DNA of 55,058 bases from Erysipelotrichaceae bacterium. GTDB taxonomy: Bacteria > Bacillota_I > Bacilli_A > Erysipelotrichales > Erysipelotrichaceae. The stretch lies in assembly GCA_017561055.1 (NCBI GenBank), contig JAFZDT010000139.1:1-55058 (forward strand), written 5' to 3'. Position 1 is the stretch's first letter. Each line of letters opens with the position of its first letter. Positions 1,486 to 6,724 of this stretch are shown in pieces. The position numbers and the translations under genes are program-made. The notes beneath the pieces were generated by a model. The model saw nothing but the letters and a program-made list of their open reading frames with translations. It ran no database searches and had not been told where the DNA came from.

Positions 1486-2601
1486 ATGATTATTGGATGT
1501 ACAAAAGAATTAAAGAACCACGAATATCGTGTTGGTTTAATCCCGGATAATGTATATACATTTGTTAAAGAAGGACATAGTGTATATGTTGAAACAAATG
1601 CTGGTGTTGGTGCTGGTTTTACAGATGAAATGTATAAAGAAGCGGGAGCTATTATTTTAGATACTGCTAAAGAAGTATATGATATTGCGGATATGATTAT
1701 TAAGGTTAAAGAACCAATTGAATGTGAATATGATTTATTAAGAGAAAATCAAATTTTATATACATATTTACATTTAGCACCAAACGCTCCATTGACGAAA
1801 GTATTAATGGAAAAAGGTGTGAAAGCAGTAGCATATGAAACAATTACTGATAAAGAAGGAAATCTTCCATGCCTTCGTCCAATGAGCCAAATTGCTGGGC
1901 GTTTAAGTGTGCAACAAGGTGCTAAATATTTGGAAAAGAGTTTTGGTGGAAGAGGAATTCTTTTAGGTGGAGTTCCAGGTGTTGAAAGAGGTAAGATTGT
2001 AATTATTGGTGGAGGAGTTGCAGGTACCTATGCAGCAAAAGCGGCTGTTGGTATTGATGCTCAAGTAACATTATTAGATATTGATTTAAATCGTTTATCA
2101 TATTTAGAAGATGTTTTTGGAGCAAGTGTAACTACTTTATATTCAACGGAAGCGAACATTCGTAAATGTCTTGCGGAAGCGGATTTAGTAATTGGATCTG
2201 TATTGATTCCTGGAGGGAAAGCTCCAAAATTGATTCGTAGAGAACATTTGTCTATTATGAAAAAAGGTGCAGTTATTGTAGATATTGCGATTGACCAAGG
2301 TGGTTGTTGTGAAACAAGTGAAGTAACAACACATCAAGAACCAGTATATATTGTGGATGATGTTGTTCATTATTGTGTAGGGAATATGCCTGGTGCAGTA
2401 CCTTATACTTCTACATTAGCATTAAATAATGCGACATTTAAGTATGCACGTATGATGGCTAATTATGGATTTGAAAAAGCAATTAAAAAGGATGCTGGTT
2501 TGGCAGATGGTGTAAATATTTATGCACACAAATGTGTAAATCAAAATGTAGCAGAATCATTGAATTTGGAATATACAGAACTTGATACAGTATTAGCTTA
2601 G
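1486..2601 (+). CDS. ald: Alanine dehydrogenase
   Basis: The N-terminus MIIGCTKELKNHEYRVGLIP is typical of AlaDH. The Rossmann motif VIIGGGVAGTYAAKAA is present. SD AGAGGTG at 1473-1479 precedes ATG 1486, so the track start 1414 is probably too early. Confidence 0.93.
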   Translation: MIIGCTKELKNHEYRVGLIPDNVYTFVKEGHSVYVETNAGVGAGFTDEMYKEAGAIILDTAKEVYDIADMIIKVKEPIECEYDLLRENQILYTYLHLAPNAPLTKVLMEKGVKAVAYETITDKEGNLPCLRPMSQIAGRLSVQQGAKYLEKSFGGRGILLGGVPGVERGKIVIIGGGVAGTYAAKAAVGIDAQVTLLDIDLNRLSYLEDVFGASVTTLYSTEANIRKCLAEADLVIGSVLIPGGKAPKLIRREHLSIMKKGAVIVDIAIDQGGCCETSEVTTHQEPVYIVDDVVHYCVGNMPGAVPYTSTLALNNATFKYARMMANYGFEKAIKKDAGLADGVNIYAHKCVNQNVAESLNLEYTELDTVLA

Positions 2602-2624
2602 AGCATGAAATTCATGCTCTTTTA
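2601..2624 (+). terminator. Intrinsic terminator after ald
   Basis: GAGCATGAA (2601-2609) pairs with TTCATGCTC (2611-2619), followed by TTTT. Confidence 0.75.
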
Positions 2625-2644
2625 TATTGGTGGATAAGTAATAG

Positions 2645-2706
2645 AAAAAAATTAAAAAAATTTTAAAAAAGTTGTTGACAATATATTTTTATGGTGATAA
2701 TATAAT
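2645..2706 (+). promoter_or_regulatory. Strong sigma-A-type promoter driving the purine-rich RNA locus
   Basis: An A/T-only UP-like tract spans 2645-2670. The -35 is TTGACA at 2675-2680. A 17-nt spacer leads to the extended -10 TGaTAATAT at 2695-2703. An overlapping perfect TATAAT at 2701-2706 would have a 20-nt spacer. The predicted TSS lies in the GGG at 2708-2710. Confidence 0.75.
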
Positions 2707-2771
2707 AGGGCTGCTTCGGGAAGAATGTTCCTAGGTGGCTAAGAGTTATCGAATAGTCGGTATTTCCTAAA

Positions 2772-4298
2772 GCTGAGTAACTAGATCCTAAGGCGCAAGC
2801 TAAGGAGATGAGGTTGTAATTCGTAAGAATGAAGGCTTCGATGCTATGGTAGCTACTGTGAAGCGAGATGGCGTACGGTGAAAGGAATTGCAGTAGGCTG
2901 AGTACCAGAATCGGATGAAAAGCATGGCAACAGGCTGGACGGAAGATGAAGATATGCACCGTGTTAACCGCTACTTGGGGAAACGGGAAGAAGGGAAAAG
3001 AAAGGTAGAAAGCTGAGTAGTCAGAAGCGTACTGAAATGGACGAAAGAAAGTCGAAGGTAAGCTGAAAGGCCGAAAGCGTAAGCATGAGGCAAGCACCTG
3101 TGGAACAGCTGTGGGAGTGAAACAGGGAAGGATGAAAGGAAACAAACAGAATGCCAAGTACTAGAAGCCGGAAGGTTCGCATGGGAAACTAGGTGAATGA
3201 TACGGTGGAAATCGATGAGTCTGAAAGGATGAATCGTAGCACTGGAAATGCCACTGTGAGGCAAGACTAGGAAGAAGGGAACGGAAGAAACAGAATGCTG
3301 AGTAGTTAGAACCTAAAACTGAAGCGGACGAAAGAATGTGGAAGAGGAAGGGGAAAGGCCGAAAGCGCAAGCATAAGGCAAGCACCTGTGGAACGGCTGT
3401 GGGAGTGAAACGGGGAAGGCTGAATGGAAACAAACAGGAAGCTGAGTTCAAGAACCTGGAAGTAAGGCATAAGAGATTAGGCTTGAGAGAAGGGGGAAAT
3501 CGTGAAGGCGAGAGCTAAAACGAGCACTGGTTCAACCACTATGAGGTGAAGCTGGGTAGAGTGGAAAGGAAGAAATAGAGACTGAGTAGTGAGATGCTAA
3601 AGCGGATGTGGACGAAAGGAAGCGGAAGTCATGTGTCTGCCCTAACAAGAAATTGGAATGGGATCGCCTGTGGAACGGCTGCGGGAGCGAAGCAGGGAAG
3701 AACGAAAGGAAACCATCAGTAGTGCCAAGTACAAGAACTAGGATGGAATACATGAGAAATCAGGTAGGAAAGAATGGGGAAGCGTAAGAAGTGAAAACGG
3801 AGGACGTGCACTGAAGTAGCCGCTGTGAGGCGACATCAGGAAGAACTGGAAAGGAAGAAGCAGAAAGCTGAGTAGCTGGAAGTTGAACAGAAGCGGACGA
3901 AAGAATGTGGATGGGAAATGGAAAATATGGAAAGTGAAAACTGGAAGTAAGCACTTGAGGAACGGCTGTGGGAGTGAATCAAGGTAGGGTGAAAGGAAAC
4001 ATACAGTGATGCTGAGTACCGGAAACCAAGAAGGTATGCATGAGAAATCAGGCAGAAGGGAATGGGGAAAACGCAAGAAGCGAAAGCGGAAGGCGAGCAC
4101 TGAAGAAGCCACTGTGAGGCGATATCAGGAAGAAAAGGGAAAAGAAGAAACAGAGGCTGAGTAGTCAGAATCCAAAACTGAAGTGGACGAAAGAAAACTA
4201 AAACAGCGGAGGTCAGAAAGTTGAAAGGAAACGATGTATGTCGTGGAATGGAAGGCCTAGAGAAGTTGGATACGAAAGTTGATAACAAGGGTGAGTCG
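2772..4298 (+). repeat. Tandem array of 11-12 diverged modules (period about 140-145 nt; 285-nt super-repeat of two alternating subtypes)
   Basis: The anchor GCUGAGUA(G/C) or GCCAAGUAC occurs at 2772, 2897, 3012, 3153, 3297, 3441, 3581, 3724, 3867, 4011 and 4156, with a degenerate GGUGAGUCG at 4290. Spacings are 125, 115, 141, 144, 144, 140, 143, 143, 144 and 145 nt. Confidence 0.85.
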
Positions 4299-4365
4299 GA
4301 AGAAGCAGCTGCAGAGATTGAATCCGATGGAAGATGAAAGGAAATTGCAGACGAAGAACAATATG

Positions 4366-4396
4366 AGTCTCAACTGAAAAGTTGAGGCTTTTTTTG
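4366..4396 (+). terminator. Intrinsic terminator of the purine-rich RNA
   Basis: AGUCUCAAC (4366-4374) pairs with GUUGAGGCU (4381-4389). That gives 9 bp including one G-U, a 6-nt loop, then U7. Confidence 0.85.
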
Positions 4397-4493
4397 TGTT
4401 ATAAAGAAGTGTATAGATAAAGACAATATAGTTAGAAAAGTGCTAAAATAAAATTGTAATAACAAATCATGTATTTTAGAAAGGGAATGACAT

Positions 4494-5846
4494 ATGGGTA
4501 GTAATAAAAGTATTAGTATCTTAAGAGATGCGCCTGTTGGAAAGGCTTTGTGGTATTTATCGTTGCCAGCTGTGCTTACAACACTGGTTGGTACAATACA
4601 CAATTTAATTGATGGTATATATGTTAGTTCTCTTAATGATAATGCAATGATTGCGGCAACAACAGTAGCTTTACCGGTAATTGTTGTTTCTGAGGCGATT
4701 GGTGAAGGAATTGGTGTTGGTACTGCTAGTTATTTAGGTAGACTTTTGGGGGCTAAAGATGAAAGTAAGGTTGAACGATTAATTGCGACTTCTATAACTT
4801 TAATGTTTTTAGTTTCAATCATTTTGTTAGTGGCGACAATTGTGTTTTTAAGACCGGTTATATCTTTCTTTACTACCGATCCAATGGTTATTAAGCATTC
4901 ATATGATTATCTTTTAATCTTAATGTGCTCTTCTATTTTTACAATTTCAAAACAAGTAGTTTCTAATATGCTTCGTGCTGCTGGTGATGTGAATTATCCA
5001 ATGAAGATTATTATTGCTAGTATTGTAGTTAATATTGTTTTAAATCCAATATTTATGTTTGATTTTGGTTTTGGATTAAAGATTAGAGGTGCGGCTATTG
5101 CGACAGTTTTAGCTGAAGTATTTGCGTCTTTTGCGATGTTTTATCGTCTTATTTTTAGAGATGATGTAATTAAATGGAGATTAGGTCATTTTGTACTTTG
5201 TATAAATTCCATAAAAGAAATTATTAATGTAGGTATACCAGTATTCATTAGAAATGGATTATCATCAATATCTTATGGTCTATTTGCGAAATCATCTGGT
5301 ATGTTTGGTACAGATTTCTTAGCTGCGAGTGGATTGTCTAGAAAAGGTGAATATTTTTCTCGTTTTGTAATTATGGGAGTTGCGCAAGGATATCAATCAT
5401 TTGCGGCTTATAACTATGGTGCTAAAAATAAACAACGTCTTATGGATGGCTTGAAGATGGCATTGAAGTTTACAATTGGGTATGGCTTCTTGATGGGAGG
5501 GTTCTTCCTATTCTTCCCACATGTTTTCATGCGTATATTAACAAGTGATGCGAATTTGATTGCGCTTGGTAAAAATATGTTAATTGGATATGCGATTTCT
5601 GTTCCGTTTGTTGCGATTTATCAAATTTTAGCTTACAATTTCCAAGCATTAGGAAAAGGTAAATTATCGTTTATTACTTCAGTATTAAGACAAGGAATTG
5701 TATACTGTCCTTTAGTAACTATATTACCTCGTTTATTTGGTATGACAGGAATGATTATTGTACAACCAATTTGTGATTTATGTAGTGCTTTGGTTGTCTT
5801 GTTCTTATCTAGATCTATCATTAAAGAAATACAAGCAATGGAATAA
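4494..5846 (+). CDS. MATE family efflux transporter
   Basis: 450 aa with a 12-TM-like hydrophobic profile. The N-terminus (PVGKALWYLSLPAVLTTLVGTIHNLIDGIYV) is typical of the MatE family. Confidence 0.85.
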   Translation: MGSNKSISILRDAPVGKALWYLSLPAVLTTLVGTIHNLIDGIYVSSLNDNAMIAATTVALPVIVVSEAIGEGIGVGTASYLGRLLGAKDESKVERLIATSITLMFLVSIILLVATIVFLRPVISFFTTDPMVIKHSYDYLLILMCSSIFTISKQVVSNMLRAAGDVNYPMKIIIASIVVNIVLNPIFMFDFGFGLKIRGAAIATVLAEVFASFAMFYRLIFRDDVIKWRLGHFVLCINSIKEIINVGIPVFIRNGLSSISYGLFAKSSGMFGTDFLAASGLSRKGEYFSRFVIMGVAQGYQSFAAYNYGAKNKQRLMDGLKMALKFTIGYGFLMGGFFLFFPHVFMRILTSDANLIALGKNMLIGYAISVPFVAIYQILAYNFQALGKGKLSFITSVLRQGIVYCPLVTILPRLFGMTGMIIVQPICDLCSALVVLFLSRSIIKEIQAME

Positions 5847-5884: not shown

Positions 5885-6724
5885 ATGAATATGGAAAAGA
5901 TAGATGTAAGAAGAAATGAAAGTTTAAAAAAATATACAACATTGCATATAGGTGGTAATTGTAAGAATATTTATTTCCCTGGAAATGAAGAGGAAGTAAA
6001 GAAAATTTTAAAGGTAAATCCTATTATATTAGGTTGTGGAAGTAATGTTCTAATTGATGATACTAGAGAATTTGAATGTGCTATGGTATTAACAAAGTTT
6101 AATCAAATTAGATTAGAAGGAAATACCATCATTGCGGATGCAGGAGCTAAATTAATGGATGTATGTCTATTTGCGCTCGAACATGGTTTGACAGGGTTGT
6201 AATTTGCGTATGGAATACCAGGAAGTGTTGGTGGAGCTATTGTAATGAATGCTGGTGCATATGGTGGCGAAATTAAGGATGTAATTGTTGGTGTGAAAAC
6301 GGATAAACAGTATTATGAAAATGAGGAATGTGATTTTGGATATCGAAATTCAAAATTCTCAAATTCAAAGGAATGTATATTAAAGGGATATTTTCAATTA
6401 CAAAAGGGTGATAAATCAATCATACAAATGAAAATGGATGATTTATTACAAAAAAGAATGGATAAGCAACCATTAGATAAATACAGTGCAGGATCGACTT
6501 TTAAAAGAGGAACTGATTTTTATGCTAGTCAATTGATTAGTGATTGCGAGTTAAAAGGATATCGAGTAAATGATGCGAGTGTATCGACTAAGCATGCAGG
6601 ATTTTTGATTAATGATGGTAATGCATCCTATACGGAATTTATGCAATTAATAGAAGATGTGCAACGTATTGTATATGATAAAACAAATAAAAAATTAGAA
6701 TGTGAAGTGAAGATAATAAAATGA
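5885..6724 (+). pseudogene. murB: UDP-N-acetylmuramate dehydrogenase interrupted by a single in-frame TAA (6200-6202)
   Basis: ORFs 5885..6202 and 6245..6724 are in the same frame. Reading through gives [30 protein letters not shown]. The MurB consensus here is GL(S/T)GLEF..[16 protein letters not shown], so the stop replaces the conserved Glu (GAA to TAA). Confidence 0.8.

Follow-up and report, generated by a model that had tools for sequence, protein, structure and literature searches.

A purine-rich tandem-repeat element of gut Firmicutes: a probable new family of large, structured and modular bacterial RNAs

To our knowledge, only few large structured RNAs have been described in bacteria beyond ribosomal RNA (rRNA), namely RNase P, transfer-messenger RNA (tmRNA), group I and group II introns, OLE, GOLLD, ROOL, HEARO and raiA, and each of the earlier ones has opened new biology or structural work. 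GOLLD and ROOL are large ornate RNAs that form homo-oligomeric RNA-only cages and in some loci lie near transfer RNA (tRNA) genes (PMC12286853). Here we report the analysis of a 55,058-nt stretch of DNA from an Erysipelotrichaceae bacterium (contig JAFZDT010000139.1, GenBank assembly GCA_017561055.1; hereafter the window, to which the coordinates refer unless another locus is named), in which the gap between the ald and MATE genes contains a 1,686-nt promoter-to-terminator stretch (2710–4395, + strand, as are all features listed below unless stated otherwise). The best overall explanation of this element, to which we assign a probability of about 0.7, is a stable, structured, modular non-coding RNA (ncRNA) of a new family, probably acting as a multivalent scaffold or sponge. 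That it encodes a genuine + strand structured ncRNA of a new family is, taken separately, very probable, and the scaffold or sponge mechanism, taken separately, is a tentative proposal for which we would give somewhat less than even odds.

In size class, ornateness, habitat and occasional adjacency to tRNA genes, the element most resembles GOLLD, ROOL and OLE. With GOLLD it shares the character of a very large ornate ncRNA with no assigned function, GNRA/A-minor-type elements, a position that is sometimes beside tRNA genes and a better-conserved 3' region (PMC12286853). However, the elements described here are about twice as long (1.3–2.05 kb vs ~800 nt), consist of ~283-nt tandem units, contain 70–76% purines, are driven by a chromosomal rRNA-type promoter, and have no matches to phages or prophages and none to the GOLLD covariance model. 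ROOL is likewise a large, pseudoknotted RNA of ruminant gut Firmicutes with no known protein partner and with tRNAs near some of its loci (PMC12286853), but it is a single non-repetitive protomer that assembles into an octameric cage in trans, whereas our element joins a variable number of protomers into one chain in cis, and neither a match to the ROOL model nor a phage context was found. OLE resembles the element in being large, structured, highly conserved, present in anaerobic Bacillota, probably abundant and possibly linked to ribosomal components (PMC12286853); it differs in its length of ~600 nt, its non-repetitive sequence and its location in an operon with its partner genes oapA, oapB and oapC, while the neighbours of our element are unrelated in every locus and the OLE model does not match. 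As a functional analogy we favour the CsrB/RsmZ RNAs of bacteria and the NORAD-type RNAs of eukaryotes, in which the same short motifs are repeated and the number of sites varies by species, although the CsrB-type RNAs comprise 100–400 nt with simple GGA hairpins, in contrast to the elaborate 283-nt folds with position-specific identity seen here, for which neither a sequence relationship to these RNAs nor a known partner was detected. Finally, the stable RNAs of rRNA operons have a similar type of promoter, and one copy of the element is located between 23S and a tRNA-tRNA-5S cluster and another directly upstream of the same tRNAs; yet no rRNA or tRNA model matches the element and most copies are solitary. 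The covariance models of ROOL (RF03087), GOLLD (RF01998), OLE (RF01071), HEARO (RF02033) and raiA (RF03072) yielded no match in the window or in 14 homologous loci. Set apart from GOLLD, ROOL and OLE by model mismatch, length, modularity, composition and setting, the element is filed here as a new class of RNA.

The element is bounded by a strong sigma-A promoter and an intrinsic terminator of its own. At the 5' edge, an A/T-only, UP-element-like region with phased A-tracts (2643–2669, 5' of the –35 hexamer; comparable A-tracts precede the promoter in homologous loci) leads into a conserved 14-mer AAAAGTTGTTGACA (2667–2680), which occurs only once in the window and contains the –35 hexamer TTGACA (2675–2680). 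It is followed after 17 nt by an extended –10 element TGATAATAT (2695–2703), which overlaps a TATAAT (2701–2706), and transcription is predicted to start near 2710. At the 3' edge, an intrinsic terminator (4365–4395) comprises an 11-bp stem (4365–4390) with a GAAA loop, followed by a run of seven T residues (4389–4395); the terminator of the preceding ald gene corresponds to 2600–2620. The promoter and terminator scan of this region by itself did not exceed chance (3 promoter-like sites vs 3.6 expected), and the two signals are significant because they are conserved across the homologous loci. The base composition is exceptional as well: the purine fraction of the + strand is 0.71 over 2707–4365, with a peak of 0.76 per 300-nt window, vs a mean of 0.54 for the 55-kb window and a maximum of 0.68 outside the element, and the G+C content of 0.46–0.50 (47%), vs ~0.31 elsewhere, makes it the sole such island in the 55 kb. 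The longest + strand open reading frame (ORF) of the element has only 60 aa (3336–3518), and ARAGORN identified no tRNA or tmRNA at the locus. A previous reading of the same DNA, made from its letters without database searches (the sequence-only reading), had called attention to this stretch, and the promoter elements and the terminator were found where it had put them; its claims of a purine skew without an equal nearby and of the absence of a credible + strand ORF were likewise borne out, and its purine counts of 45, 47 and 45 for the lines 3001, 3841 and 4081 proved exact on recount.

That reading had also regarded the element as an orphan, which the search for homologs refuted, revealing a conserved and sometimes multi-copy family. 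A scan of one genome per GTDB species with a conserved 20-mer from the repeat units identified 39 loci, of which 27 are purine-rich (0.70–0.76) arrays with a ~285-nt spacing; the remaining 12 are single hits in high-G+C genomes and were rejected as chance matches (L007, L009–L011, L014, L018, L020, L024, L030, L033, L042, L044). A composite-motif scan of metagenome contigs added 9 contigs, giving a total of ~36 homologous loci. The named sources are metagenome-assembled genomes (MAGs) of Erysipelotrichaceae/Erysipelotrichales, Oscillospiraceae, Oscillibacter and Lachnospiraceae from the caecum, colon and rectum of goat, sheep, water buffalo, roe deer and water deer, i.e. mostly from the ruminant hindgut. 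The element keeps its composition irrespective of the host (purine 0.70–0.76 and G+C 0.45–0.57, with host G+C ranging from 0.32 to 0.57). Complete elements span 1.3–2.05 kb with 2–5 full units and share a common layout: A-tracts and promoter, a 5' domain of ~280 nt, units of ~283 nt, a 3' domain and, at the end, a terminator, which in two loci is replaced by tRNA genes. The flanking genes (enolase, dUTPase, transporters and others) are unrelated among the loci, which indicates that the element is an autonomous gene rather than a leader or spacer of one operon. Thus, the stand-alone + strand RNA gene of ~1.69 kb proposed by the sequence-only reading is supported, as ~36 loci with unrelated flanks share the promoter, the array, the 3' domain and the terminator.

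More than one locus was found in five MAGs. In one of them (JAFULN01), two copies (L031, positions 1–1813, and L032, positions 3915–5742) are 97.9% identical over 1.83 kb, with the identity ending at the element edges, pointing either to recent duplication or to gene conversion between them, as known from rRNA operons; in the four other MAGs the copies are 80–91% alike and may represent either genuine paralogues or errors of binning. The locus of the window itself is also present, with 3–4 single-nucleotide polymorphisms, in two other metagenome assemblies. Three Logan contigs of the same strain (L003, L004 and L005), assembled from short reads, begin 129–142 nt upstream of MATE, at about window position 4352–4365, i.e. 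at the 3' edge of the element, and many homologous MAG contigs terminate within the array. The repeats probably fragment assemblies, and because of that the family is likely to be under-represented in MAGs.

The transcription signals are conserved among the loci. In 15 loci there is a single occurrence of the pattern AAAARKTGTTGACA per locus, and it is invariably located at the 5' border of the element; 14 loci have an extended –10 element (TGnTAATAT, TGGTATCAT or TGATATTAT) 17 nt after the 14-mer and phased A-tracts before it; and the promoter precedes the first full unit by 310–333 nt in 9 of the 10 complete loci. In most loci a hairpin with a T-run closes the element at the same place. Strong promoters of stable RNAs in Firmicutes have this kind of architecture, with A-tracts followed by AAAAGTTGTTGACA, a 17-nt spacer and an extended –10 element. 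Three loci are informative exceptions with regard to their genomic setting. In L034, the 3' end of 23S is followed, after ~80 nt, by the element (~940 nt), tRNA-Lys(CUU), tRNA-Glu(CUC), 5S and a terminator, and in L023 a promoter-driven element continues directly into tRNA-Lys(CUU) and tRNA-Glu(CUC). These two gene orders imply that the RNA is sometimes co-transcribed with rRNA and tRNA genes. In L040, tRNA-His and tRNA-Phe are located ~300 nt upstream of the element. Nevertheless, only 3 of the ~36 loci have tRNA genes next to the element, and most copies are solitary, with their own promoter and terminator. From the rRNA-type promoter and the copy within an rRNA operon we infer that the RNA is probably made at the levels of stable RNAs, similar to those of rRNA and tRNA. 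As a side observation, the tRNA-Lys(CUU) and tRNA-Glu(CUC) genes (7540–7693 in L023 and 922–1075 in L034) read the AAG and GAG codons, and the element is particularly rich in these two triplets; this match may be a coincidence.

Internally, the element is composed of tandem repeats with a 282–289-nt period, identified by a repeat search and nhmmer; Tandem Repeats Finder, hampered by a similarity of only ~70% between the copies, did not detect the ~285-nt period. The array begins with a 5' domain (2710–2989), which is a diverged copy of the repeat unit (in nhmmer, unit positions 20–218 match 2769–2945), and continues with four full units: unit 1 (2990–3274), most similar to the first unit of L013 (80% identity), unit 2 (3275–3559; best match unit 2 of L013, 82%), unit 3 (3560–3843; delineated by the repeat search and nhmmer) and unit 4 (3844–4132; best match the last unit of L013, 87%). 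It ends with a truncated fifth unit (its first ~65 nt), which passes into the conserved 3' domain (4133–4355) terminating at ATTGCAGACGAA (4344–4355). The internal tandem modules postulated by the sequence-only reading are therefore real, with four full units of 282–289 nt accompanied by a diverged first and a truncated last copy.

Each unit comprises two related halves, both with a GCYRAGUA motif and an GAAAGGAA(G)AAACAG motif. The invariant features of the unit are a 20-nt loop, two GAGUA motifs and GGACGAAAG. The loop (GGAACRGCUGYGGGAGYGAA; 3102–3121 in unit 1, and 3390–3409, 3672–3691 and 3959–3978 in the other copies) includes a self-complementary CRGCUG and is closed by a covarying 5-bp helix (columns 130–134 with 155–159 of alignment A2). 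A 20-mer common to all four units, GGAACRGCTGYGGGAGYGAA, has 4 matches in the window vs 0.01 expected, and GCTGAGTA is present in 7 copies in the element vs 0.8 expected for the whole window. At the inter-unit junctions, runs of 25–30 nt consist almost wholly of A and G (GGAAGAAGGGAACGGAAGAAAC and similar sequences; examples are 3264–3289, 3549–3574, 3834–3859 and 4122–4149). Tracts of this (AG)n/ARN-like type are bound by Hfq of Gram-positive bacteria and by some KH-domain proteins, both of which are candidate partners of the linkers. The triplet GGA is also abundant in the element, owing to its base composition.

The decisive evidence for a structured RNA comes from covariation. RNAalifold applied to 58 units (alignment A2) predicted 26 pairs, 17 of them with compensatory changes, and a curated unit model contains 33 pairs in 12 short helices. 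In this model 94.2% of the cells are paired, vs 22–38% when the partners are slid by 1–3 columns; 27 of the 33 pairs change on both sides, with 306 compensatory cells vs 19–35 in the slid controls, and none of 500 shuffles reached the observed values. For instance, pair 205:240 is represented by UA (22), GC (15), CG (14) and AU (5), and pair 84:124 by CG (28), AU (20) and GC (7). G-U pairs are frequent in the covarying helices, which identifies the + strand as the functional one, since the opposite strand would read them as C-A mismatches. The claim of a structured RNA, made by the sequence-only reading, is thus substantiated by extensive covariation, including G-U pairs workable on the + strand only. 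The terminal domains conform to the same picture: the 5' domain (15-locus alignment) has 37 predicted pairs, 13 of them compensatory, and the 3' domain (23-locus alignment) contains covarying helices (e.g. pairs 35:76, 167:199 and 134:156). The hairpins are built of 2–5 Watson-Crick pairs alternating with symmetric G-A, A-G and A-A juxtapositions and are capped by GAAA or GAGA, and the element of the window has 25 GNRA mini-hairpins vs 9.3 ± 2.9 in shuffles. The purine skew is explained by this architecture, i.e. by short GNRA-capped helices separated by purine-purine internal loops. Three candidate substructures were rejected: a long-range helix closing the unit in RNAalifold (A2 columns 26–31 with 290–296), which involves invariant columns only; a GGCU-GAGU-AGCC hairpin around GCUGAGUAG, which has too many exceptions; and a sarcin-ricin-like reading of AGUA...GAAC, whose halves are only 3–4 nt apart.

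The units are also connected with each other. The last hairpin of the unit displays the loop A-CUGU-GA, and ~40 nt downstream, in the next unit, there is an A-CAG strand. Comparative analysis shows that the two form a covarying loop-to-strand pseudoknot of 3–4 bp, which ties each unit to the next one. Between units 1 and 2 it involves CUGU 3254–3257 and ACAG 3290–3293 (span 3254–3293), and the other pseudoknots pair CUAC 2971–2974 with GUAG 3005–3008, CUAU 3539–3542 with AUAG 3575–3578, CUGU 3823–3826 with GCAG 3860–3863, and CUGU 4112–4115 with ACAG 4150–4153. Among 81 junctions (alignment A3), the combination CUG:CAG was found ~61 times, CCG:CGG 12 times and CUA:UAG twice, both of the latter in this window (2971–2974/3005–3008 and 3539–3542/3575–3578). 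The corresponding pair counts are U-A 60 and C-G 12 for one position and G-C 70 and A-U 2 for another, and the fourth pair varies among U-A, C-G, A-U and G-U. Within an array the units are contiguous and 67–86% alike, but for 35 of the 38 units of complete arrays the closest relative is found in another genome, usually at the same ordinal position (mean identity of 0.84 to the best match elsewhere vs 0.73 to the best match within the own array). Such position-specific relationships indicate an ordered multi-domain molecule with rare gain and loss of units, and not a homogenised satellite. A clustered regularly interspaced short palindromic repeat (CRISPR) array or a simple satellite was rejected on the same grounds, as the 282–289-nt units are contiguous and nearest to the same-position units elsewhere. 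The element displays the generic properties of a structured ncRNA gene: its own promoter and terminator, conservation independent of the neighbours, and compensatory changes.

What could such a molecule do? If the model is correct, the RNA would form a chain of 4–7 similar folded bodies (terminal domains counted), each of them exposing the 20-nt loop, two GAGUA motifs, GGACGAAAG and pure-purine linkers of ~25–30 nt, and would in this way offer 4–7 near-identical sites to a conserved partner in the cell. Because the motifs are invariant from Erysipelotrichaceae to Oscillospiraceae, a cellular component that is itself conserved would be expected as the target. A translation-related factor would be the leading candidate, favoured because of the link to rRNA and tRNA genes, and a general RNA-binding factor is also in view. 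The variable number of units suggests that valency matters rather than a fixed closed shape.

Several observations weigh against the proposed multivalent structured RNA. The range of 2–5 units fits a sponge without proving one, and no conserved protein-gene neighbour pointing to a partner was found across the loci. Thermodynamics alone flags no structure, with minimum-free-energy z-scores of a single unit of +0.39 for the + strand and –0.16 for the – strand; single-sequence folding is uninformative for so purine-rich an RNA. The covariation-based model pairs only about half of the pyrimidines of the unit, and the presumed high expression is deduced from transcription signals only. Because the search motifs came from this window, the taxonomic range given here is biased and should be taken as a minimum. 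Two source labels are at odds with the Firmicute element that the contigs carry: L034, labelled Methanocorpusculum sp. although its contig carries bacterial 23S and 5S, and L019, labelled Verrucomicrobiales; both are short contigs that were mis-binned.

Could the element instead be an RNA-only architecture, in which linked units pack via GNRA/A-minor and loop-loop contacts into a large pseudo-symmetric body or filament, comparable, but in cis, to the cages of ROOL and GOLLD? The very high density of GNRA loops and purine-rich internal loops and the covarying pseudoknots that couple neighbouring units are compatible with this, as is the self-complementary CRGCUG in the invariant loop, and tRNA genes adjoin some copies, as they do for ROOL and GOLLD (PMC12286853). 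Nonetheless, the variation from 2 to 5 units between genomes argues against one closed symmetric assembly, and no covariation supports contacts between units beyond the neighbour pseudoknot. The CUG of the palindrome may moreover form an intramolecular pseudoknot, of the kind seen in the homologous half-unit: by analogy to the inter-unit pseudoknot, pairing is conceivable between the CUGU of the 20-nt motif and a mid-unit ACAG, the three core pairs being invariant and the fourth lacking consistent covariation. There is also no link to phages, as a motif scan of IMG/VR returned only 3 chance matches without unit homology and blastn against 50,697 phage records returned nothing; since 72,556 plasmids gave no match either, a phage or plasmid origin was rejected. 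We therefore consider an RNA-only assembly unlikely, and prefer the multivalent scaffold or sponge.

A more far-reaching view of the data, that of a new stable RNA of the cell, produced jointly with rRNA and tRNA, whose 4–7 protomers form a large architecture working directly with the translation apparatus, is attractive but appears rather doubtful to us. Were it true, the RNA might act on the ribosomes, ribosomal proteins or tRNAs of hindgut Firmicutes by sequestering or organising them, and it would constitute an extra product of the rRNA regulon, exceeding the length of 16S rRNA in some species.

The co-transcription, in two loci, with tRNAs, whose own release depends on processing, and the variable copy number of the tandem array could alternatively be taken to mean that the element is a polycistronic precursor, cut into monomers of ~283 nt (or ~142 nt), with the copy number setting the dose. 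We regard this as improbable, since the units keep their position-specific identities across genomes and are base-paired across the junctions, the specialised 5' and 3' domains are conserved, and neither ARAGORN nor Rfam finds a tRNA-like or other known processing signal in the array. A multivalent molecule that acts as a whole remains the preferred explanation.

A known family (ROOL, GOLLD, OLE, HEARO, raiA or another) that was missed, or an RNA that has already been published, would account for the data only with a very low probability. A cmscan of the whole window with Rfam 15 (4,227 families) at gathering thresholds gave no match, and a search of 2550–4500 with E≤10 and lax filters gave only noise, mostly outside the element. 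In the 14 homologous loci Rfam had no match within the element, while the neighbouring 5S, 23S and tRNAs were called correctly; no rRNA model matched, and of the loci only L034 is part of an rrn operon, most being solitary. These searches agree with the sequence-only reading, which had considered the RNA possibly undescribed. Rfam lags behind publications, and our full-text literature searches, which included literal motif strings, produced no description of the element but left most subscription journals uncovered.

The sequence-only reading left the ORFs of 96–164 aa on the – strand unmentioned. These are explained by the pyrimidine-rich composition of that strand, which gives such runs by chance: the longest stop-free run of 175 codons is at the level of shuffled sequences (166 ± 44). 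Variability of the alignment columns displays no period-3 signal (its power ranks 111 of 134), and the six longest ORFs have no Pfam match at E≤1. Despite the – strand ORFs and the repetitive, sometimes multi-copy nature of the element, a lack of RNA function, i.e. a decaying gene of a repetitive – strand protein or a selfish or neutral DNA satellite, can practically be dismissed, because the unit lengths of 282–289 nt preserve no reading frame, neither a transposase nor terminal inverted repeats were found at the element or its flanks, and conservation of the sequence extends beyond a single bacterial family and is accompanied by compensatory changes and + strand-specific G-U pairs.

If the proposed molecule is made as predicted, it would be one of the largest non-ribosomal RNAs in bacteria. 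We know of no description among bacterial ncRNAs of its principle of construction, in which ancient, position-specific tandem protomers are chained by pseudoknots. Judging from the promoter and from the occasional copies placed in rRNA or tRNA operons, the RNA may be very abundant in these uncultured gut bacteria and connected with growth or translation. The sequence, boundaries, alignments and partial secondary structure make it directly testable.

Two neighbouring genes deserve a comment. In murB (5885–6724), an in-frame TAA (6200–6202) occupies a position at which homologs have Glu in the MurB motif. All 5 independent assemblies with the window's locus (L001–L005) have murB annotated as two fragments of 105 aa and 159 aa, and possible explanations are a genuine nonsense mutation or pseudogene, a case of read-through, or a shared strain variant. 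In ald (1414–2601), the mechanically delineated ORF starts 24 codons upstream of the start in the metagenome gene call (371 aa, MIIGCTKE...), and the shorter version, starting at 1486, is likely to be the right one.

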